Origin: Polyangiales bacterium
GTDB taxonomy: Bacteria; Myxococcota_A; Polyangia; Polyangiales; Houyiibacteriaceae
DNA: 64,000 nucleotides
Direction: 5' to 3'
Assembly (NCBI GenBank): GCA_965227405.1
Contig: OZ245758.1
Location: 1,641,693 to 1,705,692, forward strand
Both the position numbers and the translations under genes were made by a program. The notes under the pieces are model-generated. The model ran no database searches. It had not been told where the DNA came from and saw only the letters and a list, made by a program, of their open reading frames with translations. Position 1 is the stretch's first letter. Every line of letters begins with the position of its first letter. Positions 3,596 through 25,607 of the stretch are shown in pieces.

Positions 3596-5344
3596 GTGCT
3601 GGCGTGCGGAGGCACGTCTTCCCCCGATGCGAGCGTTCCGGATGCAACTCCGGATAGCCACGTTCAAGCGACATCGTGGACTTGGGATCCGTGGCCACAA
3701 GGACCGGTGACCTATCGCGTCGCAATCCCGAGCTGCAACGACGACGCGGCAGAACCCGGACGCTGTTCGCGCGGTTTTGCATGTACCGGCAGCGTGGATG
3801 TTGAACTGGTTGCACTCACTCGCGAGGAACGCGTTTGCGTGGCCGATGGTGTCACGACAATCGCCATCGATCGCTTTGAGGCGTATGAACCGAGCGAACC
3901 CGTCGACGTCACGATCCGAGTCACGCACAACGACGCGCCTTTCGAAGGCCGCGGAACGCTACGCCTGATCGACGAACAAGGCGCTGAGGCGTACTCGGGT
4001 CCTCTCGGCGACATGTCACTACGACTTCAACGCGGCAACTTTCGCGCGCTGGTCAACGTCGAGCCCGATACTCAAGTTCCAGCTTGGACACGCGGCGCAG
4101 CGGTCGTCGTTGGCGACGAAGCGGTCGTCATCCCGCTCGAGTCTGGGCGCTTGGTGTTCGAGGGTGAAGGTCGCGCGAATCTGTTAAATCGGGAAACCGG
4201 TGTCGCGATGGAGACCACGCTTCCGGCCGATCTTCCTGCGGTCGCGGGCACGTACGAAGTCACTCTCGTCCGCGATGCCGGTAGTGCACGTCAGGCTCCG
4301 GTCGATGTCACTGTCGGCGAACAAACGCGAGTCTCGCTCGATGCTGAAGAAGCTAGCGCCGTAGGCGAAGTCCGCGTCGATGGGGAGTTGGTCGCTGTGG
4401 GCACCGTGGTGTTCCACGATCCAGAAACAGGTCACGACGTCCGCGTTCCGATTCGCGAGGGCACCTATCGCACAACGCTCGTGAACCGCGCATGGGCGGT
4501 GTTCCTCGACACGCGCGACGTGGAAGGCCCACTGCCTCAGATGCGCGCCCTCACGCACGAGGCTGCAGCACCGGTCGTTGGGCTCGACCTCGATGTGTCC
4601 ACAGTTTCTCTTCGCGGCACATACAGCGTCGACGGTGTCGCGGCGCCTGTGCTCGGCCAGCGCTACGGGTTTGTCCAAGTTGTCGATGCACTAGGAATCG
4701 CCGGCGCCGGTGTTCCCTTGGAGGATGGAACGTTTGAAGGGCGCATTTACGCGACGCGTGCGTCCTTGGATTTCGTCGGCATGCATTCGACCGCACCGCG
4801 ATTGGCCCAACGCGTGGCGGAGTCGCTGGTGTTGGATGATGTTCCGATCGAAGTCGACATCGAAACCGCGCAGCTGGAAGTAGCACTTCGCGTCAACGGC
4901 GGAACGTTTCCCGTTGGCGCCGATATCGTCCCACGTGGACGCGGCGTGCTGATGGTGCGCGATGATTCGCGCAGTCTCGAGGCGCTGTTCCCTCCGCGTG
5001 GTGAAGCGATCGCGACGATGGTTGTTCCGCCCGGACGCTACACGCTCCTCTACGCCAACGACGAACTCGACGACGTTCCGAGGGGGCAAATCGTGTTGGG
5101 CGAAGTCGAGGTTTCGGGCGAAACGCGGGTCGACTACGACCTAACTCTGCACGAGTTCGCGTTGCAGCTTCCACCGGATGCGGGACGTGCGCAGTTCACC
5201 GGGATCGACGAAGGAAGTTTTGTCGACACCAACGTGACGGGCAGTACACCAGGGACAGCGCGGCTCTTTGGTGGGACGTGGCGAATGCACGAGCTGTGCA
5301 CGGTCGGATGCGGTCGACTCGTCATGGGCTGGTTTTCACTCTGA
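3596..5344 (+). CDS. hypothetical protein, possible lipoprotein
   Basis: 582-aa ORF starting GTG 3596 with ..LACGG.. at the N-terminus; a signal-peptide-like coding stretch lies immediately upstream without a canonical start codon. Confidence 0.5.
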   Translation: MLACGGTSSPDASVPDATPDSHVQATSWTWDPWPQGPVTYRVAIPSCNDDAAEPGRCSRGFACTGSVDVELVALTREERVCVADGVTTIAIDRFEAYEPSEPVDVTIRVTHNDAPFEGRGTLRLIDEQGAEAYSGPLGDMSLRLQRGNFRALVNVEPDTQVPAWTRGAAVVVGDEAVVIPLESGRLVFEGEGRANLLNRETGVAMETTLPADLPAVAGTYEVTLVRDAGSARQAPVDVTVGEQTRVSLDAEEASAVGEVRVDGELVAVGTVVFHDPETGHDVRVPIREGTYRTTLVNRAWAVFLDTRDVEGPLPQMRALTHEAAAPVVGLDLDVSTVSLRGTYSVDGVAAPVLGQRYGFVQVVDALGIAGAGVPLEDGTFEGRIYATRASLDFVGMHSTAPRLAQRVAESLVLDDVPIEVDIETAQLEVALRVNGGTFPVGADIVPRGRGVLMVRDDSRSLEALFPPRGEAIATMVVPPGRYTLLYANDELDDVPRGQIVLGEVEVSGETRVDYDLTLHEFALQLPPDAGRAQFTGIDEGSFVDTNVTGSTPGTARLFGGTWRMHELCTVGCGRLVMGWFSL

Positions 5345-10155: not shown

Positions 10156-10728
10156 ATGAGCGATCTCGTCGATATCATCGAAGTAGCCAAGTCGGGCCGC
10201 GCCAAGTGCCGCTCCACCGGTGAGAAGATCCCCAAGGGCGAGCTGCGTTTCGGCGAAGCCTTCGTCAACACGTTCAGCAGCAGCGGCAGCATCTCCTACC
10301 GCTGGCACTTCCTCGAAGCCGCAGCGAAGCGCTTCCCGCTCAAGGTGAAGAAGGCGCTCGAGACGTTCGACGGTGACGTGCCCAACCGCGAAGCGATCGA
10401 CAAGATCATCGAAGAGGCCGGCGCCAAGAAGAAGAAGTCCGACGCGAAGAAGCCCGGTGGGTTTCCGTACGCGGACCGTGCACCGACCGGCCGTGCAGCG
10501 TGCATCGTCTGCGGAGAAAAGATCCCCAAGGGCAGCGTGCGGTTTGCCATCGAGCGCGAGATCGACACCGGCTCGTTCGTGCGCAAGGGCCCGGGCTACA
10601 TGATGGGCACCATGGTCAAGCAGTACTGCGAGGACGAAGGCTTGGACTTCGATGACTTCCTCGCATCCGTGAAAGCCAACAGCCGCGTCGTGAACGAAGA
10701 AGAGATCGACGAAGCCATCGCCGGCTAG
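10156..10728 (+). CDS. tandem degenerate PARP-type zinc-finger (zf-PARP-like) protein
   Basis: two ~90-aa internal repeats: AKSGRAKC..KIPKGELRFG..YRWHF and APTGRAACIVCGEKIPKGSVRFA..; strong Shine-Dalgarno AAGGAGG 7 nt upstream of the ATG. Confidence 0.7.
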   Translation: MSDLVDIIEVAKSGRAKCRSTGEKIPKGELRFGEAFVNTFSSSGSISYRWHFLEAAAKRFPLKVKKALETFDGDVPNREAIDKIIEEAGAKKKKSDAKKPGGFPYADRAPTGRAACIVCGEKIPKGSVRFAIEREIDTGSFVRKGPGYMMGTMVKQYCEDEGLDFDDFLASVKANSRVVNEEEIDEAIAG

Positions 10729-15815: not shown

Positions 15816-16040
15816 TCATGGGGTCTTGGGAAGAATCCTACGTGCACGTTTCTCGAATCGCTCGTTGGGCATGGGCAGCAGGGGCACGCCGTTCCGCCGG
15901 TTCCTGCGCCGACGCGACGCGACCCGTGTACCGTCGTGCCCGTGCCCATGCCCATGCCCATGCCCGTGCCCAACGAGCGTCGGAAAGAGACGCGTGCGCA
16001 GGAACCATCCCATGACCACAGGGTCAAAACCGCGCGACAT
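15816..16040 (-). CDS. small His-Gly repeat protein (speculative)
   Basis: 74-aa ORF containing (HG)6 encoded by a hexanucleotide repeat; lies between two same-strand genes, 18 bp upstream of 15798. Confidence 0.25.
   Translation of the reverse strand: MSRGFDPVVMGWFLRTRLFPTLVGHGHGHGHGHGHDGTRVASRRRRNRRNGVPLLPMPNERFEKRARRILPKTP
15936..15972. repeat. hexanucleotide tandem repeat (CCCRTG)x6
   Basis: gtgcccgtgcccatgcccatgcccatgcccgtgccc read directly from the sequence. Confidence 0.9.
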
Positions 16041-16974
16041 CCAATAGAATATCGACCTCGCAGGTCTTGCTCACCGCACCCTCTGTCGTTCCATCCGCAT
16101 TGACCTGCGCCGAGAAACTAAACCCACGCGGATCCAAACACGCAGGATCGTAACTGCCATCAAGCCCACCGACGGGCGCACTCGCCACGGTTGTCCACGC
16201 GTCGACGAAACCAAAATTGTTCCGCCTCAGGTACGTATGGAACGTCTCATCAAACGCTCCATCCTCGGTGATCAGCTCGACGTACACTTCGATGTCTAGG
16301 GCTGGCTGCGTGGGCGACGGGATCCGACACACCAAAAACCCATCGGTGTAGACAATTCGAACGCGCACGTTGGTATCCGGAAGCGTCTCGGGATACAGCT
16401 CACGATCACGCATGTACGGAAAGGGCGACGTGAAGTCGTCCGTCGGAATTCCCTCCAGTACCGCCACTGGCGTGAAGTCTGCATCATCACCGCACTGCTC
16501 GTTGGCGTCCTCCAATAGAATCGCGCCCTCTTCCGGCAAACCGGAATCGCGTCGCGTGCACGCCAAACCAGACGCCGCACACACGCATTCGTTCACACCG
16601 TCTGTCGCATCAAAGCGCTCGCCGTACTCGTAGTCGGTACCGTCATAGGTGCAGCCCGGACCCATCGACGTGCATTCACGCTCGGTGCATGCGCTGCTCC
16701 CGTCCGCATTGCAGTCACAGAAGTTGCACCCGTCGCCCGCGGGATATCGGTCGCCAGCTTCATGGTCGTCCAGACAACTCGAGCCCGCGTCCACGCCCGC
16801 ATCGGTTCCGGCGTCGACACCTGTATCCAGCTCCGCATCGACACCGTCCGTCGAAGCGTCCGTGCCCACGTCGGTGCCGCTGTCCACGACCGACACGTCC
16901 GTACCCGCGTCGGTCGGAGCACTGTCGTCTCCGCACGCGACCATCAACAAACAAACCAAGGCAAGTGACCGCAT
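16024..16974 (-). CDS. Cys-rich secreted lipoprotein, hypothetical
   Basis: lipoprotein signal MRSLALVCLLMVACGDD; Asp/Thr/Gly-rich linker; multiple Cys pairs. Confidence 0.6.
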   Translation of the reverse strand: MRSLALVCLLMVACGDDSAPTDAGTDVSVVDSGTDVGTDASTDGVDAELDTGVDAGTDAGVDAGSSCLDDHEAGDRYPAGDGCNFCDCNADGSSACTERECTSMGPGCTYDGTDYEYGERFDATDGVNECVCAASGLACTRRDSGLPEEGAILLEDANEQCGDDADFTPVAVLEGIPTDDFTSPFPYMRDRELYPETLPDTNVRVRIVYTDGFLVCRIPSPTQPALDIEVYVELITEDGAFDETFHTYLRRNNFGFVDAWTTVASAPVGGLDGSYDPACLDPRGFSFSAQVNADGTTEGAVSKTCEVDILLDVARF

Positions 16975-17936: not shown

Positions 17937-19472
17937 CTAAAAACCATCATCGAAGATCGGCACATCGTCGACGACTTGGTCTGACATGCCCATACCCATG
18001 CCCATCCCGCGCATGTTCATTCGTGGACGCATGCCGCGCATGCTCATGCCCATCCGTGAAGCACGGTCGTCTTCTGCCTCGGCTTCGGCTTCGGCTTCGG
18101 CCTCGGCTGCGACGGCGGCTGCGGCCTCGGCTTCGGCGACGGCTTCGGCGACGGCGTCGGCTTCGGCCTCGGCTTCGGCTTCGGCTGCGGCTGCGGCTTC
18201 GGCTGCGGCTTCGGCGGAGGATTCGGCGGAGGATTCGGTTTCAGCTTCGGCCGCGCTCCCAGCCGATTCCACGGGTGGCGCCGCAACGGGCAGAACCGGC
18301 TCGCCACTTCCGCCGCGGACAAGCATCACCGTCAACGCAAACGATGCGATCGCTACCGCAATCCCAGCAACGATGATCCAACCCTTCCGCGACTGCTCTT
18401 GGCGCGGACGCACGCCGCTTCCATCGCGTGTCGGAGCTTCACTTGCCTCAACTCCAGCTGGAACCGGCGCCGCTCCATCCAGACAAGCCGCCAGCATCTC
18501 ACGACGCTCATCCAGCATCTTGCCAAGGCTGCCCTCCAAGAGTGTGGCGATACGCGTCGCATCCACCATCGCCACCTCAGGAACGGCCTGGCCCAACGCA
18601 CGTCGGAACTCCAACGCAGTCTGATAACGATCGTCCGGATTCTGGGCGAGCGCCTTCATCACGACAGCGTCGAGTGCCGGCGACACCCCCGATCCAAACG
18701 CGCTCGGAGGTTTGATATCGGGCGCTGCGATCTGTTGCATCACGGCGAGTTCGTCACGACCGTTGAACAGTCGTCGCAACGCAAGCATCTCCCACAACAC
18801 CACGCCCATCGCATAGACATCGCTACGTCGATCGACGGTATCCCCGCGTGCCTGCTCCGGCGCCATGTAGCGCAACTTGCCTTTGAGCGAACCCGACCCC
18901 GTTTCGGTTTGGTGATGCCGGCCCCGCGCTTTCGCAATTCCGAAGTCGATCACCTTCACGTTGCCGTCCGCAGCCAACAGGATGTTCTGCGGACTGATGT
19001 CGCGGTGAACCAAACCGAGGAAGTTGCCGTCGGCCCCCTTGATATCGTGCGCGGCGTGCAAACCACTGAGCGCCTGCATCGCGATCCAAGCCATCTGTGC
19101 TGGATCCAGCGGCTCTTCGCTCATCGCGCGTGACTTGAGAAGCTGCGAGAGCGAAGCGCCGAGCAAATACTCCATGGCGATAAAGAGCACGCCGTCGCGT
19201 TCGCCCAGTTCTTCGATGTGAATCACGTTGGGGTGTTGGATCTTCGCGGCGAGTTTGGCCTCGTCGATGAACATGTCGACGAACTCGGAACTTTCGGCGA
19301 GATGGGGATGGATCACTTTGATCCCCACGGGTCGCGCAAAGCCCGCAGCACCCTCACGTCGCGCGAGATACACGCTCGCCATACCGCCGCCCGTTAAACG
19401 CGCGAAAATCTGATACGGCCCAAAGACCGAGCCGACGCCGACGTGTGCTGAGGCGCTGGGCTGAACCGCCAC
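17937..19472 (-). CDS. Ser/Thr protein kinase with one TM helix and low-complexity (AE)n / Met-Gly-rich tail
   Basis: Hanks motifs GMASVYLA, VGIKV, HRDISPQNILL, DFGIA, APE; TM GWIIVAGIAVAIASFALTVMLV; C-terminal AEAEAE.. and MGMSMRGMRPRMNMRGMGMGMGM. Confidence 0.9.
   Translation of the reverse strand: MAVQPSASAHVGVGSVFGPYQIFARLTGGGMASVYLARREGAAGFARPVGIKVIHPHLAESSEFVDMFIDEAKLAAKIQHPNVIHIEELGERDGVLFIAMEYLLGASLSQLLKSRAMSEEPLDPAQMAWIAMQALSGLHAAHDIKGADGNFLGLVHRDISPQNILLAADGNVKVIDFGIAKARGRHHQTETGSGSLKGKLRYMAPEQARGDTVDRRSDVYAMGVVLWEMLALRRLFNGRDELAVMQQIAAPDIKPPSAFGSGVSPALDAVVMKALAQNPDDRYQTALEFRRALGQAVPEVAMVDATRIATLLEGSLGKMLDERREMLAACLDGAAPVPAGVEASEAPTRDGSGVRPRQEQSRKGWIIVAGIAVAIASFALTVMLVRGGSGEPVLPVAAPPVESAGSAAEAETESSAESSAEAAAEAAAAAEAEAEAEADAVAEAVAEAEAAAAVAAEAEAEAEAEAEDDRASRMGMSMRGMRPRMNMRGMGMGMGMSDQVVDDVPIFDDGF
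18075..18255. repeat. hexanucleotide tandem repeat (GCYTCG)n, ~28 units, coding (AE)n in the kinase gene
   Basis: cggcttcggcttcggcttcggcctcggctgcg.. read directly. Confidence 0.9.
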
Positions 19473-19492: not shown

Positions 19493-20299
19493 TCAGTCAG
19501 GAACCGTCAGTCGGCCCGGCGGAACGTTGCCGTTGTACCGAGCGGTCGATCCTGCACGCGCACCGAGAACACCACCCAGCACAGCGCCGACCACAACAAC
19601 ACCGACGATGGTCCAAAGCACCGGCGAACGTCGTAGCGGACGAGGCTCATCGCCTACGACATCGGGTTGTTCGGACAGGACTTCTTGTTGCGCGAGTTCC
19701 GTCGGATCAGGAACCAGTGGAGTCCACTCGAGACCGGCCACATCGATGACGTGCTCGGCGCCTTCTTCCAACGTGAACTCAAGCTCGACTGCCCGGTAGT
19801 CCGCGCGTTCAACGCGTGCCGTGTGCGTGGAGGGATCCAATGGAAAGAGTTCCCCATACGCAGCCGCAGGAACATCCTCGTCGTCGATCGCAACCGTCAC
19901 GTTCCGAAACTCACCCGTCGCCACAATCCGCACGTTCGGAATTGCCGCTTCGAGTTCCTCAAGTGCGGCTTGTGCAACTCGGTTCTGCTGTCGAGCGCGG
20001 CGCCCTCGGGCATCGTTGGAAGAAAGAAAGCGTCGGTAGCTCTCTGCAGCCGCGACCCACATGCCCAGCTGTCGTTGGGTGCCTGCCAAGTTCAACAGTG
20101 TGGTCGAACGAGGCGAGAGTTCGTACGAACGCTCGAACGCATCGTGAGCTTCCTGCCAGTTGCGCTGTCGCGCTTCGCGAATCCCCTCACGAAAGAGGCG
20201 GCGCGCAACCGTGGTGCTACTCGCGCCTTGAGCCTCCACCAAATCCGCCCCCGACGAGAGCAGAACCACCATCGCGAGGAGGTTGGCAGCGACACGCAT
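19493..20299 (-). CDS. signal-peptide protein with TPR-like segment and C-terminal TM helix, hypothetical
   Basis: real gene is the 3' 268 codons of a longer antisense-extended ORF; N-terminus MRVAANLLAMVVLLSSGADLVEAQG; TM VLWTIVGVVVVGAVLGGVLGA. Confidence 0.6.
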   Translation of the reverse strand: MRVAANLLAMVVLLSSGADLVEAQGASSTTVARRLFREGIREARQRNWQEAHDAFERSYELSPRSTTLLNLAGTQRQLGMWVAAAESYRRFLSSNDARGRRARQQNRVAQAALEELEAAIPNVRIVATGEFRNVTVAIDDEDVPAAAYGELFPLDPSTHTARVERADYRAVELEFTLEEGAEHVIDVAGLEWTPLVPDPTELAQQEVLSEQPDVVGDEPRPLRRSPVLWTIVGVVVVGAVLGGVLGARAGSTARYNGNVPPGRLTVPD

Positions 20300-20351
20300 G
20301 CGCAAATCGTATCGAAAACCACGCGCCGCTTCTACTTGGTATCCTCCCCGC

Positions 20352-22073
20352 ATGCTTCGGCGTCTTGGCTTCGCGCTCGCGATCGTCGCACTCGGTGCGT
20401 GTGATGACGAAGCCACGCAGTTGATCGTGGTCGTCGACACAGACCTCGCGATCCCAAGCATGATCGACGGGGTTCGCTTCGACGTTTCGGGACGCGGCGC
20501 AACCGCCACGACAACGGCAGCGTTGACGTCGTCTACGCAACTGCCACTGACGTTGGCGCTTGAACCCGAAGGCGATCCCGGCTCAGTCGAAATCCGAGTC
20601 ACTGGCACAAGCGCTGGAAGCGACGTCGTCGAAGCGCGCGTAGACACCGAGTTTCTCACCGGCCAGCGGCGACTGGTCAACGTGTTCCTTTCCACGTCGT
20701 GCATCAGCGTGGACTGCACTGGATCAAACACCTGCGTGCAGGGCATGTGTCGCCCTTCGTTTGTGGCTCCTGAAGACCTTCCGCGCTTCGACGGAGAGCC
20801 GGGCCGACTCGACGGTGGAGTCGGTGTGGATGCGGATATTGGTGATGCGGACACCCCCGACGCGTTCGATGGTGGACGCGACGCAACTGTCGATGCTCCA
20901 CCCATCGATACCGGTGGTGTCGATGCAGGCTGCGGATGCGACGACGGCGTGACCTGCATCGACGGTGTCTGCGAGAACCGGCTCGCGGTCGACGTGTGGA
21001 TGGGCCAACGCTTTACGTGCATCGAACGCCGCGACGGCACGATCAGTTGCCTAGGCGACAACCGCAGTGGACAGCTCGGCGACGGAACAACCAACGACGC
21101 CCCGGTGTTGGCGCCGGTTGATGTGATCGGTTTTGGACCGGACGGTGATACCGCCACGGACGTTGCGCTCGGTTTCGACTCGGCGTGCGTGGTGACCAGC
21201 GGTCGCGAAGTGTTTTGTTGGGGCGCCAACGAAGCCGGGCAGCTCGGTGACGGAACCCTGGTGATGCGACCCGTTCCACAGCGCGTACCGGGGTTGAACT
21301 CGATCATCGACGTCAGCTCCGGCTCGAACCACACCTGCACCGTGGCTGTGTCCGGCGAGATCCAATGTTTTGGCGGCAATGCCGCGGGGCAACTTGGCGA
21401 CAACACCAACGACGGACGCAACACACCGGCGCCTGTCGTGGACGATCTCGAGGGTGTTCAAGTCAGCTGTGGCAGCGGCTTCACCTGCGCGATTCTCATG
21501 GACAACAACGTCGCGTGTTGGGGCGGTGGACTGAGCGGCGAGAACGGCAACTCGATGTTTATGAACACCGAGCGGCCGGACAACGTTGGAGGAATCAGCG
21601 GGATTCCCTTGGCCCTCACCACTGGAAGCGACAACTCGTGCGTCGCTTTCGCGGATGGCACCGTTCGATGTTGGGGCGCGGCTGACTTCGGTCGGCTCGG
21701 TGACGGAGGCGCTAGTGGTGGCGGCGATCAGTTCATGGCTGTCCCCGTGCCTGCGCTTGCAGGCGTCACGCAAGTCGCGAACGGACCCACTGCCTCCCAC
21801 GCATGTGTGAACGCTGGTGGAGATGTGTTGTGTTGGGGTGGAAACCGCTTTGGCCAGGTCGGCGACGCGAACGTCGGCATTCCGCGGCCGGTGCCCTTTG
21901 AAGTGTCCCTGCCGTCCGCTGCGATTGCGGTAGAGACTGGCGGCGTGTCGTCGTGCGCCGTGTTGGACACCGGACGCGTGTACTGTTGGGGCGAAAACGC
22001 GCGTGGTCAGTTGGGTGACGGAACGACCGACGACCGCGGCATCCCGACGGAAGCCACCGCATTTTTCCCGTAG
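20352..22073 (+). CDS. RCC1-repeat (beta-propeller) lipoprotein
   Basis: lipobox MLRRLGFALAIVALGACDDE; at least six RCC1-like repeats (..CWGANEAGQLGDGT.., ..CFGGNAAGQLGDNT.., ..CWGENARGQLGDGT..). Confidence 0.75.
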   Translation: MLRRLGFALAIVALGACDDEATQLIVVVDTDLAIPSMIDGVRFDVSGRGATATTTAALTSSTQLPLTLALEPEGDPGSVEIRVTGTSAGSDVVEARVDTEFLTGQRRLVNVFLSTSCISVDCTGSNTCVQGMCRPSFVAPEDLPRFDGEPGRLDGGVGVDADIGDADTPDAFDGGRDATVDAPPIDTGGVDAGCGCDDGVTCIDGVCENRLAVDVWMGQRFTCIERRDGTISCLGDNRSGQLGDGTTNDAPVLAPVDVIGFGPDGDTATDVALGFDSACVVTSGREVFCWGANEAGQLGDGTLVMRPVPQRVPGLNSIIDVSSGSNHTCTVAVSGEIQCFGGNAAGQLGDNTNDGRNTPAPVVDDLEGVQVSCGSGFTCAILMDNNVACWGGGLSGENGNSMFMNTERPDNVGGISGIPLALTTGSDNSCVAFADGTVRCWGAADFGRLGDGGASGGGDQFMAVPVPALAGVTQVANGPTASHACVNAGGDVLCWGGNRFGQVGDANVGIPRPVPFEVSLPSAAIAVETGGVSSCAVLDTGRVYCWGENARGQLGDGTTDDRGIPTEATAFFP

Positions 22074-22088
22074 GCGGTACGCTTCGGC

Positions 22089-23648
22089 ATGGCGAAGCGG
22101 CGTTTTGAGTTCAGCAGCGGTTCCTCGAACAAGTTTTGGGAAATCGACGTCAAAGGTTCGTCGCACACGGTGCGCTACGGGCGCATCGGAACGGACGGAC
22201 AAACCAAAACCAAAACACTCGCGTCGCCCGCCAAGGCTCGCGAAGCGGCGGACAAGCTCATCGCGAGCAAGATGAAGAAGGGCTACGTCGAGACCAAGGG
22301 CAAGGCCGCCAAGAAGCCTGCGAAGGCCGCCAAGAAGAAGCCCGCCAAGAAGAAGCCTGCGAAGAAGTCCGCGAAACGGTTCCCATCGACGAAGGCGTCG
22401 GCGAAACGAAAGCCCACCAAGAAGGCGACCAAGCGACCCGCGAAGAAAAAGCTCGCGAAGGGCAAACGCATCGACGCGCGATTGGTGCATGCCGTCGCAC
22501 CGAAGTATCCCGCCGGCTCGTTCGTCGGCGTGTGGGAAAGCGGAGCCGACTTGTGGGTCATCGGCGCAGACGACATCGGCAAAGAGGACGATGTCTCCAC
22601 CGCAGATGTGATCGACAGCGATGGCTTTGTTCAACGCTGGCGCTTCAAGTCGCCCAAAGAAGCCAAAGCCGCAGCGGCAGCGATCAAGAAGCAGAAGAAG
22701 CCCGCGAAAGGTCCCGCACCGGACTGGGTTAAAATCGACTCCGCGCTCAATCCGTTGATGCGCGCCAAGGATCTGCCCACGATTGCGCGTTACGACGTAG
22801 CGAAGAGCGGCCCGCTCACATTGACGCGGTCCACGCCCTTTGACTGGGTCCATCCGCGACCTGCATCACGTTGCTGGTGCGGGCGTGCCCTGATGCCGAC
22901 GTATCAACTCAGTGGCGCGGTCGATCCTCGTTTGGGCAAGAAGATCCGAATGCACATCTCGTTTTGCCCAGGCTCACTGCAGTCTCCGCACTGCGAAGGC
23001 ACGATCGAGGTGATCGTCGAGCACGAAGGTGCGAAATCCAGCGACGTCGTCGCCTACGAACTCATTGGCTACGGACGCAACAAGAGTTACGGGGTGCTGT
23101 CGCGAAGCGTGTTTTGGGATCCGATCGGGTCGGGTTTCCGGCATGCAGTGACGACGCACTATGGCGAGATGGGCACACCCGGGACAGTTCGTACCGAAAC
23201 GTTTCGGACGCGCAAAGAGGCCGACGAGTACTTCAAAAAGCGAAAGCCTCACCGCCCGGCAAAGCGAAGTCAGTTTGGGAAGTGGTACGCCGACGTACTC
23301 AAGGAGCGCGCCCACTTCCACCGCGTCCCAGGTTCGAAGCCACAAACGCTGCGCCTCAAGCCTCTGATGGCGCCGGCCAAAGTCAGCGGCAGCCCCTACG
23401 CACGCGTCGCGGACCTCTTCGACAATCGAGATGGAGTGGGTGGACAACCGAACTACACGCAGAGCGACTGGAGCGACACGTTTGACTGCGCCGCGTGTGG
23501 CAAGGTGATGCTCTTTGTGTTTCAGACGGGCTACGGCGCGCCGTGGTGGTGCGAACAACTCAACGACGGGGATGCAGGATCGTTTCAGTTCTTTGCGTGT
23601 CCGCACTGCAAGGGCCCACACGGTCGCGCGCTCTTTGAGTGCCACTAG
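22089..23648 (+). CDS. WGR-domain protein with histone-H1-like Lys/Ala/Pro linker and Cys-motif C-terminal domain
   Basis: WGR signature RRFEFSSGSSNKFWEIDVKGSSHTVRYGRIGTDGQTKTKTL..KKGY; linker AKKPAKAAKKKPAKKKPAKK; C-terminal CAACGK..FFACPHCKGPHG. Confidence 0.75.
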   Translation: MAKRRFEFSSGSSNKFWEIDVKGSSHTVRYGRIGTDGQTKTKTLASPAKAREAADKLIASKMKKGYVETKGKAAKKPAKAAKKKPAKKKPAKKSAKRFPSTKASAKRKPTKKATKRPAKKKLAKGKRIDARLVHAVAPKYPAGSFVGVWESGADLWVIGADDIGKEDDVSTADVIDSDGFVQRWRFKSPKEAKAAAAAIKKQKKPAKGPAPDWVKIDSALNPLMRAKDLPTIARYDVAKSGPLTLTRSTPFDWVHPRPASRCWCGRALMPTYQLSGAVDPRLGKKIRMHISFCPGSLQSPHCEGTIEVIVEHEGAKSSDVVAYELIGYGRNKSYGVLSRSVFWDPIGSGFRHAVTTHYGEMGTPGTVRTETFRTRKEADEYFKKRKPHRPAKRSQFGKWYADVLKERAHFHRVPGSKPQTLRLKPLMAPAKVSGSPYARVADLFDNRDGVGGQPNYTQSDWSDTFDCAACGKVMLFVFQTGYGAPWWCEQLNDGDAGSFQFFACPHCKGPHGRALFECH

Positions 23649-24594
23649 CGCGCGTCCACATCGCAACAAGCGCACCCACGATTCCGGGACGGACGGTGCT
23701 TCGATACGACGCAGACTCGGGAAGCTGCTCCATTAAACGCTGATGTACCAAGGGAAAGTGGTGGTAGGCCAACCGCGGAAACTGGTGGTGCAACGCGTGA
23801 TGCGCCGTGCCGACAGGGTTCACCAGCCAGGTCAGCCAACCTCCTTCGAGGGTGCTCGAGTCTGCGACTTGAGCATCGAAGCTCATTGGGTCGCCGTGGC
23901 TTTCGTACGCGTGCGACACGTTTGTGCGCAACTGATTGAGCGCAAGCGCAGTTCCCGTGACCGCCCACCACAGAAGCGCCCAATGCCAGTGCAGCCATCC
24001 TTGGATCAGAGCGACGCTCATCGTGGTCCACCACAGCCACGCAAGCACTTCGTACCGAACAAAACGCACGTCTACGCATTCGCGTCGAAACGACATGTTG
24101 GTCACAAGCGAACTCGCACGCGCGACCACAATCCGACGAATGGGAGGCACGACACTAAGCGGTGCCACCAAGACCCAACGAAGCGCAAGCAAGGGCGGCA
24201 ACACAAAGCTGACCAGGACCGAGGAGATGTGTTGCAGCCGGCCCCAGGTCGCGACCTGTTCGTATTCGGGATCGCCTAGCGTGCCGTAGACCCGGGTTCG
24301 ATGATGATCGGTGTGCGTGTCGACCATAGGGCTGATCAATCCCAATGGGACGCCGACGAGCAGGTTCCAGATCGGCTCAAACCCAGGCAGCTCACCTGCG
24401 CGCCGATGGTTGATCTCGTGGACGAAGTACGCCGCCCGCCACAGCGCAAAGACGCTGATCATCGCCGCTAGAGGCCAGGACAGCGCCAACACAAACGCAC
24501 CCCAGCCCACCAGCGCACTGGCGCCAAAATCCGCCCAATAGATGCTTCGATTGGGCTTCAGGGTCCGTACCCACGCACGAAACTCGCGATTCAT
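23560..24594 (-). CDS. membrane fatty-acid desaturase
   Basis: three His boxes HEINHR, HTDHHRT and HHALHHQF; start set at MNREFRAW (24594), the ORF-track start is 24834; 3' end overlaps the WGR gene by 89 bp. Confidence 0.75.
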   Translation of the reverse strand: MNREFRAWVRTLKPNRSIYWADFGASALVGWGAFVLALSWPLAAMISVFALWRAAYFVHEINHRRAGELPGFEPIWNLLVGVPLGLISPMVDTHTDHHRTRVYGTLGDPEYEQVATWGRLQHISSVLVSFVLPPLLALRWVLVAPLSVVPPIRRIVVARASSLVTNMSFRRECVDVRFVRYEVLAWLWWTTMSVALIQGWLHWHWALLWWAVTGTALALNQLRTNVSHAYESHGDPMSFDAQVADSSTLEGGWLTWLVNPVGTAHHALHHQFPRLAYHHFPLVHQRLMEQLPESASYRSTVRPGIVGALVAMWTRASGTQRARDRVGPCSADTQRTETILHPRR

Positions 24595-24675
24595 GCGGCT
24601 AGCGTCGCGAATCACTGAGTTTCTGGCATTGGTCGACTGCGCCGTTTCATTGACCGAACGCGCTATCGTGGGTGG

Positions 24676-25607
24676 GTGATAGCGCGGAGCGTCACCGAAC
24701 ACGTCATCGCCGTGGCCAAGGCTCATGGGGCCGGTGGCATGATCCAGCCCACCGGCGACCAGGTGGATGATGCCACCCACCTCAAGATCTGGGAGCAAGC
24801 CATTGCTCAAACCTCCCGCGACTTGCCGGTCCACTACGCGCGTGCGTGTGATGTGGATGGCTATGGCTTGCTCGGTCTAGCGTGCAAGACAGCACCTGAT
24901 CTGCGAACGGCCATCGAGCGCATGCTCACCTTCGTGCACATCGTGGCCTCGAGTGTGCAGGCTCGGTTGGATGGCCACACGCTGGTCGTCCAACGCGACG
25001 GCAACCCCGGACTGGGTCGAATGGCAGCCATCGAGTCCACGCTGGGCGAGATCTGGGTGACCATCGGCCAGATGACCGTCGAACCGGTTGCTCTGACGCG
25101 CGTTGAACTCGCCCACCCACCCTACGTGCAGCTGAACTCGCTCTTCGGATGTCCGGTCGAGCAGACCGATCGCAATGCTCTGGTGTTTGCTGACGATGCA
25201 CTCCGCACGCCCTGAAGCAGGCTGATTCTGCGATTTCTGCCTATTTTCTCGAGCAATTGCGTCCCTTGGCGAAACCTGAGACGTGGACCGAGCGAGTCGC
25301 ACAACAGCTCGAAACCGCATTTGCGCAGTCTGGAGGAGCATCCAGACCTGGGGTCGAGGATGTCGCTCGAGCGTTGGCCGTTTCACCGCGCACGTTGCAG
25401 CGTCATCTCCAAGAAGAGTCCTCTTCGTTTCGCACCGTCCTCGAACACACGCGTCTCACCATCGCCAAACGACTTCTGATCACACACGCCATCGGCGAGG
25501 TCGCATTCGCGCTCGGGTTCTCCGAAAGCAGCGCCTTTCATCGTTGGTTTCGAAAGTCGACAGGGATGACGCCGGGTGCGTTTCGCGATTCCTCCACGCT
25601 GGGATGA
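24676..25607 (+). pseudogene. AraC-family transcriptional regulator split by a frameshift (ligand-binding domain 24676..25215, HTH domain 25257..25607)
   Basis: the upstream ORF is an AraC-type N-domain; the downstream ORF has the AraC HTH (..GFSESSAFHRWFRKSTGMTPGAF); the reading frame changes by 1 nt between about 25194 and 25213. Confidence 0.5.

Follow-up and report, generated by a model that had tools for sequence, protein, structure and literature searches.

A rare WGR protein family of the Myxococcota whose C-terminal module is very probably a divergent TYPP domain

The gene described here lies in a 64,000-nucleotide stretch of contig OZ245758.1 from a Polyangiales bacterium (assembly GCA_965227405.1), which is called the window below. 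Its open reading frame (ORF) extends from an ATG to a stop codon on the + strand at exactly 22089..23648 and encodes a product of 519 amino acids, in agreement with the initial annotation made from the sequence alone. The gene is real, as relatives from 96 % down to ~25 % identity preserve the reading frame, and it shows no compositional break within a window of ~61 % average G+C. The product may well be a soluble multidomain protein of a rare family. It starts with a canonical WGR domain and a strongly basic linker, which are followed by a module that is very probably a highly divergent TYPP domain. The features of the gene are as follows.

22089..23648, + strand: complete gene (519 codons plus stop), read as WGR, basic linker and two copies of a unit consisting of a WGR-like module and a TYPP half (ORF and homologues)

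22104..22298, + strand: canonical WGR domain, residues 6-70, with the aromatic-Gly-Arg signature Y29-G30-R31 (Pfam PF05406, 2ra8_A, first structural model)

22299..22478, + strand: disordered basic linker rich in Lys, Ala and Pro, residues 71-130, net charge +27 (composition; predicted local distance difference test score, pLDDT, about 32)

22322..22367, + strand: tandem DNA repeat of 15 nt, 3.1 copies, within the linker-coding part and translated as KPAKK units (90 % matches by Tandem Repeats Finder)

22479..22703, + strand: tentative degenerate WGR-like module, residues 131-205, predicted as beta-beta-beta-alpha-beta-alpha (hhalign, shuffles, secondary structure of the model)

22761..23036, + strand: probable TYPP repeat 1, residues 225-316, with an x-G-P motif, CxC...Q273 and a Cys4 site (C262, C264, C293, C302)

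23040..23264, + strand: degenerate WGR-like domain between the TYPP repeats, residues 318-392, with the family-invariant H357 and G365 and the Arg of W-G-R replaced

23265..23393, + strand: helical connector and first strands before repeat 2, residues 393-435 (secondary structure of the model; half-versus-half alignment to the connector before repeat 1)

23394..23645, + strand: probable TYPP repeat 2, residues 436-519, with GGQP451-454, Q458, a Cys4 site (C467, C470, C504, C507), NDGDAGS492-498 and a C-terminal FECH (hhalign against the YwqG profile, shuffles, invariant columns)

Residues 131-519 gave no above-threshold match in sequence searches of Pfam, NCBIfam, PADLOC and the PDB. The initial annotation had presented this region as a novel domain with paired Cys motifs that could not be placed in any family. 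All of its listed motifs are present, with the Cys pairs C262/C264, C293/C302, C467/C470 and C504/C507 together with C488 and C518, and the lack of Pfam, NCBIfam and PDB sequence matches stands. However, the region is very probably a divergent form of a domain already described as a partner of WGR, which largely explains away the claimed novelty; a match to a described WGR partner is also the outcome that the initial annotation itself had named as refuting it. The TYPP superfamily comprises TSR4, YwqG/DUF1963, PDCD2L and PDCD2 (Burroughs & Aravind 2014, PMC4275035), the YwqG family being one of six TYPP families. It is defined by an all-beta unit that occurs twice, each copy with a GGxP motif, a highly conserved Gln and sporadically conserved CxxC pairs, and by a preferred insert site that follows the first strand of repeat 2; among the N-terminal fusion partners listed for the YwqG family is WGR (PMC4275035).

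The structural model of the module is consistent with the two-repeat all-beta fold as in 1PV5; the first AlphaFold2 model (full length, 7 sequences, pLDDT 59.5) was rejected here as too poor for use. Gly451-Gly452 is present in all 20 sequences of the family alignment, Pro454 in 19 and Gln458 in 17 of the 20. Gln458 is located at +7 from the first Gly, the same spacing as in YwqG (GGQPNYTQ vs. GGYASFTQ). After GG...Q, both YwqG and the family continue with a hydrophobic-LxQ strand and then GDxG..FF; the nearly invariant NDGDAGS (window 23562-23582) aligns with the GDxG of YwqG. Both also end alike, in aromatic-x-acidic-Cys-x, and C518 of this tail is retained in 15 of the 20 members. Repeat 1 carries a conserved x-G-P only ('KSGP'), and Q273 ('TYQL') is confined to close relatives. 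The Cys tetrads are complete in 12 of the 20 members for repeat 1 and in 10 of the 20 for repeat 2. In any one member, the four Cys of a tetrad are either all there or all missing, in keeping with the sporadic CxxC pairs of the superfamily.

Profile comparisons were made with hhalign, whose pairwise E-values were calibrated by their own shuffles only. Comparison of the whole module with a 4-sequence DUF1963 alignment was negative (probability 0.1 %), so a YwqG reference of 13 sequences was used instead, consisting of 1pv5, eight plasmid-borne YwqG genes, one metagenome locus and the DUF1963 domains of three proteins (P0017, P0032 and P0068). This reference profile is shallow; searches for further DUF1963 sequences yielded 2 matches (protein homologue search), 0 (viral contigs) and 1 (metagenome contigs). 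Against the 13-sequence profile, residues 436-519 matched the second YwqG repeat over 52 columns with 82.7 % probability and E = 9.6e-6. The score of 37.9 compares with 10.8 ± 2.1 for column shuffles (maximum 19.2) and 9.9 for the reversed sequence.

Several results, beginning with that negative comparison, weigh against a TYPP assignment. Repeat 1 alone is not significant against YwqG (hhalign E = 0.14), its best local match lying at the equivalent strand, and the whole module reaches only 46 % probability. The Pfam models for TYPP are DUF1963 (PF09234) and PDCD2_C (PF04194). DUF1963 matches none of 16 members, and the sole PDCD2_C match is in one orthologue (P0004), over repeat 1, with E = 0.013-0.024 and 15 bits vs. 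a cut-off of 30. Foldseek searches of the PDB and BFVD returned nothing at E <= 0.001, with 1pv5 in seventh place at E = 0.24 and 12 % identity to the module. The missing DUF1963 and PDCD2_C matches are a property of the Pfam models and not of the superfamily definition. Pfam DUF1963 never matches, the identity to 1pv5 is low, and the module profile, run in an exhaustive hmmsearch, retrieved ~17 relatives of its own without a single DUF1963 protein; the module is therefore assigned to a separate divergent TYPP family rather than to the YwqG family proper. The data demonstrate the domain identities, the motifs and their conservation, and the internal duplication described below.

The paired Cys motifs could also mark a Cys/His zinc-finger domain not described before, with DNA or RNA as its target; the protein would then be a new type of nucleic-acid-binding protein, a reading that builds on the novel Cys-motif domain of the initial annotation. 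The four pairs are there, no Pfam or NCBIfam family matches above threshold, and members have sub-threshold zinc-ribbon matches (TFIIS, TFIIB; best E = 0.0017). We regard this explanation as largely refuted and extremely unlikely.

The two TYPP repeats are separated by residues 318-392, which matched the N-terminal WGR domain of the family itself with 85-88 % probability and E = 3-6e-6 (hhalign), and Pfam WGR below threshold (E = 0.0037). The signature here is Y358-G359-E360, in which the Arg is lost and which directly follows the invariant His357. In structural comparisons of the model, the internal WGR-like domains match the structures of PARP WGR domains and 2RA8; ranks 2 to 5 of the PDB matches are the WGR-containing protein of B. 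fragilis (2ra8_A, 7.4), PARP3 WGR (2eoc_A, 6.5) and PARP1 WGR twice (4dqy_C, 6.3; 2cr9_A, 5.7). Residues 131-205, which precede repeat 1, are tentatively a third WGR-like module: they matched the N-terminal WGR of the family with 44 % probability and E = 2.4e-4 over only 18-22 columns, covering the last strand and the helix, a weak match at the sequence level whose score was reached by none of 100 shuffles. A collinear alignment of 95 columns joins the first half of the module (residues 131-316) to the second half (residues 318-519), with 65 % probability and E = 6e-5; it scores 36.3 vs. 12.6 ± 2.5 for column shuffles, 17.7 ± 3.8 for block shuffles and 12.5 for the reversed sequence. Thus, with halves that align and a WGR-like module in each, tentative in the first, the C-terminal region reads as a WGR-like module plus a TYPP half, twice. 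The inter-repeat WGR-like domain follows the motifs of repeat 1 and precedes the GGxP of repeat 2, a position compatible with the TYPP insert site. A WGR-like domain at the inter-repeat position is absent from the published description of the superfamily (PMC4275035).

Comparison with known TYPP proteins showed both shared and distinct features. The WGR-YwqG fusions (PMC4275035; P0017 and P0032) share with this protein the N-terminal WGR, a basic low-complexity stretch and a two-repeat TYPP domain with GGxP and Gln. However, P0017 and P0032 match DUF1963 at E = 1e-19, whereas the family here does not match it at all. The fusions carry Ank or HEAT spacers and lack Cys4 sites, whereas in the family here each of the two repeats can have a Cys4 site, and WGR-like modules precede repeat 1 and separate it from repeat 2. 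YwqG of Bacillus subtilis (1PV5), the structural prototype of TYPP, is a single domain of 261 amino acids without WGR, basic tail or Cys4 sites, and its inter-repeat insert is not WGR-like. PDCD2, Tsr4 and PDCD2L resemble the family in having CxxC pairs in both TYPP repeats and an extra domain between the repeats. The inter-repeat domain of PDCD2 is MYND whereas its counterpart here is WGR-like, and the arrangement here is a structural parallel to the inserted MYND.

The N-terminal WGR domain proposed by the initial annotation is clear. Residues 6-70 match Pfam WGR (PF05406) with E = 6.1e-23 and 81.2 bits vs. a gathering cut-off of 22, and the PDB sequence search aligned residues 3-89 to chain 2ra8_A (E = 3e-18). 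The WGR part of one NCBIfam model matches the same N-terminal region, and the signature Y29-G30-R31 is located within 'VRYGRIG'. The first model shows the WGR fold in this part, with strands at residues 4-10, 13-22, 25-32 and 38-43 and a helix at residues 47-63 (pLDDT 76-89). The domain is a bona fide N-terminal WGR like those of PARP1/2/3 and Bacteroides fragilis Q64V53 (PDB 2RA8, WGR plus a leucine-rich-repeat-like region); ADP-ribosyltransferase, ligase and leucine-rich-repeat (LRR) domains are all absent here. With the MolR-type proteins of E. coli (WGR plus DUF4132), the N-terminal WGR is the sole common feature, and Pfam searches of the protein and family members gave no DUF4132 match at E <= 10. 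The architecture is therefore distinct from WGR-DUF4132, as had been suggested from the sequence; however, the TYPP module in place of DUF4132 is an already described WGR partner.

The linker contains 24 Lys, 14 Ala and 6 Pro in 60 residues (73 % Lys, Ala and Pro), with the net charge of +27 given above, and is disordered in the first model. This composition agrees with the initial annotation, which had put its length at ~70 residues. Histone H1 has a C-terminal tail of related composition, and AlgP of Pseudomonas has KPAA-repeat tails. The linker resembles these tails in its Lys/Ala/Pro content, strong positive charge, predicted disorder and repeats at the DNA level. However, the H1 and AlgP tails are terminal, whereas the linker is internal, and its length and charge are not conserved across the family, in which the charge of the linkers varies from 0 to +28. 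The likeness to H1 and AlgP tails drawn earlier thus holds for composition; homology to H1 or AlgP was not detected in Pfam or NCBIfam. A basic stretch after WGR recurs in other bacterial WGR fusions, for example P0017 and P0032.

The family is very rare and so far confined to Myxococcota. Among 5.8 billion proteins, a word-indexed search identified no more than six full-length relatives, the remaining matches being to WGR only, and a repeat search with the C-terminal module profile added two fragments. When 1.84 billion representatives were scanned exhaustively with HMMER, 23 matched, ~17 of them genuine. Most genuine members begin with WGR, and all named members come from metagenome-assembled genomes (MAGs) of Myxococcota (Kofleriaceae, Myxococcales). 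The NCBI annotation of the members is 'WGR domain-containing protein' only, and the supplement of PMC4275035 holds no mappable WGR or Myxococcota entries.

Some matches were rejected. Five proteins with long multi-stretch matches are repeat proteins, two of them with FG-GAP repeats (P0062 and P0065) and three with other repeats (P0060, P0063 and P0066); judging from the sequences, DxNGDG-type FG-GAP repeats probably mimic NDGDAGS and so explain the matches of P0062 and P0065. P0057, taken up as a possible stand-alone half-unit protein, is a fragment, since its start is 10 nt away from the end of its contig. Among the genuine members, one locus (L019) has a 96-residue WGR-only gene (4706-4996) located 4 bp upstream of a WGR-less member (P0059, 5001-6167); this pair is either a natural split of the fused architecture or a frameshift. 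At another locus (L016), a different WGR fusion gene (2-1159) lies directly upstream of the member P0051, placing two distinct WGR proteins in tandem. By its sequence, the upstream gene looks like a WGR domain with a TIGR02996-like motif and an LRR-like region, of the 2ra8 type.

In the window, a gene for an RCC1-repeat protein (RLD beta-propeller; 20283-22073, + strand) ends 16 nt before the gene in the same orientation and is probably co-transcribed with it. On the other side, a convergent fatty-acid desaturase ORF (23560-24834, - strand; PF00487, E = 8e-22) overlaps the 3' end of the gene by its last 89 nt (23560-23648), taking its extent as the called ORF. Further upstream, 10156-10728 (+ strand) encodes a stand-alone protein of 190 amino acids in which two zf-PARP (PF00645) fingers are joined by a Lys-rich stretch, without a catalytic domain. 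A Ser/Thr protein kinase is encoded at 17937-19472 (- strand), and a protein with a marginal Pacifastin-inhibitor-like match at 16024-16974 (- strand); these two genes are typical Myxococcota content without an evident link to the gene in question. The RCC1, kinase and zf-PARP neighbours recur only at the locus of a syntenic relative of 60 % identity (L002), where the adjacency of the RCC1 gene is also kept and the zf-PARP protein is 85 % identical. All three are absent around the orthologues of 64 % and 57 % identity (L004 and L003) and around all distant members.

The zf-PARP gene raises the possibility that the protein is a dedicated DNA-repair accessory factor acting with the two-finger protein encoded 11 kb upstream. 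WGR and zf-PARP cooperate on DNA breaks in eukaryotic PARP1 (PMC10789625), and the syntenic relative has the same arrangement. However, the orthologues of 64 % and 57 % identity and all distant members lack a zf-PARP gene in the surrounding 8-10 kb, and at least five genes, some on the opposite strand, separate the two in the window. The co-occurrence that the initial annotation proposed to follow is not supported at the neighbourhood level in these MAG contigs, because it recurs at the one syntenic locus only. A dedicated partnership is thus very unlikely.

Another possibility is a role as an immunity or sensor protein in inter-bacterial or anti-phage conflict, in which, by analogy with WGR-SUKH fusions, the TYPP module would neutralise or sense a toxin or phage protein and WGR would sense damaged DNA. 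WGR is indeed also fused to SUKH/SMI1_KNR4 immunity-type domains (P0021), the distribution of the family is patchy and narrow, a second WGR fusion lies directly upstream of the member P0051, and the candidate-defence model WGR_XIII of PADLOC matches residues 5-120 (E = 8e-9). However, this match is confined to the WGR domain and the linker, and genes for toxins, nucleases, secretion or known defence are missing from all 10 neighbourhoods examined, which hold housekeeping genes that differ each time. A survey of polymorphic toxins names neither WGR nor YwqG (PMC3482391). We consider a conflict role unlikely.

The favoured reading, possible though somewhat doubtful, is that the protein is a nucleic-acid-tethered adaptor or chaperone that binds peptides, rather than an enzyme or a zinc-finger reader of DNA. 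This proposal draws on analogy with eukaryotic proteins, on the basic stretch that other bacterial WGR fusions also carry after WGR, and on the PADLOC WGR_XIII match, which runs on to residue 120 in the linker. The WGR domains of PARP1-3 bind DNA breaks (PMC10789625). The TYPP domain of PDCD2 and Tsr4 holds the unstructured, positively charged N-terminus of uS5, and mutation of GGxP/CxxC in either repeat abolishes uS5 binding (PMC7736825); a peptide-binding, chaperone-like role was predicted for TYPP by Burroughs & Aravind (PMC4275035). By this analogy, the protein would be docked through its N-terminal WGR and polycationic linker, probably at DNA ends or nicks as in PARP1-3, or else on RNA. 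The pocket around GGxP...Q458 would bind an extended or disordered client peptide, as PDCD2 and Tsr4 do with the basic uS5 N-terminus, and the WGR-like domain carrying His357 would flank this pocket. The two Cys4 sites would be structural, optional and dispensable, and would probably hold zinc. The N-terminal extension of uS5 is eukaryote-specific, so the client here must differ from uS5, and a role in ribosome biogenesis is not supported. We infer in this way the binding of nucleic acid, zinc and a peptide, and the existence of a client.

Three observations speak against this adaptor proposal. In one member (P0006; L001 10001-11287) the WGR core is lost, whereas the first strand of WGR (MAKRRLELEAGNS) and the stretch rich in Lys remain; the C-terminal module can thus persist in the absence of WGR and may work untethered from DNA. 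The 10 neighbourhoods revealed neither a conserved operon nor a partner gene. We also know of no client for any bacterial TYPP protein.

The conservation pattern could instead reflect an enzyme, for example one modifying peptides or nucleic acids, with an active site of H357, Q458 and C518 that WGR would target to DNA. His357 is invariant in the 20-sequence alignment and Gln458 nearly so, whereas the Cys4 sites vary; as to Cys518, YwqG proteins end in a similar ...WDC-x tail. Burroughs & Aravind raised a catalytic role as a 'more radical interpretation' and judged it unlikely, as it has no enzymological precedent (PMC4275035). PDCD2 and Tsr4 are experimentally chaperones (PMC7736825), and no catalytic family in Pfam, NCBIfam or the PDB matches the protein. 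An enzymatic function is quite improbable.

A more specific version of the chaperone proposal starts from the internal symmetry. In this version, rather than being merely heir to the ancient TYPP duplication, the module would have arisen or been rebuilt by tandem duplication of a protomer consisting of a WGR-like module and a single TYPP half, the degenerate WGR-like modules would form the walls of the client cleft, and nucleoid proteins of the polycationic, H1-like kind would be the clients of this chaperone. The TYPP pocket would hold the +27 Lys/Ala/Pro tail of the protein itself, or similar tails, until WGR engages a DNA end. We consider this combination decidedly improbable; if true, it would be the prokaryotic equivalent of the way in which PDCD2 holds the basic uS5 tail.

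The combination of WGR with TYPP and the fold are already known, and the protein is neither a new fold nor a new system. What is new is a divergent TYPP family, invisible to current Pfam models and narrowly distributed, so far in Myxococcota only, in which both repeats have Cys4 sites and WGR-like modules are nested or duplicated. As divergent TYPP families escape Pfam DUF1963 and PDCD2_C, a second domain can be added to proteins whose annotation is 'WGR domain-containing protein' only. To our knowledge, functions are known neither for bacterial TYPP/YwqG proteins nor for stand-alone WGR fusion proteins of bacteria. WGR and TYPP are tied in three independent ways, by the N-terminal fusion, by the WGR-like modules before and between the repeats, and by the split-gene version, which argues for a functional pair rather than a chance fusion. 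The internal twofold symmetry of WGR-like module and TYPP half is a small, concrete data point on the evolution of the strand-swapped TYPP fold. The outcome is of use for annotation and, as a curiosity of evolution, makes the functional link between WGR and TYPP stronger.

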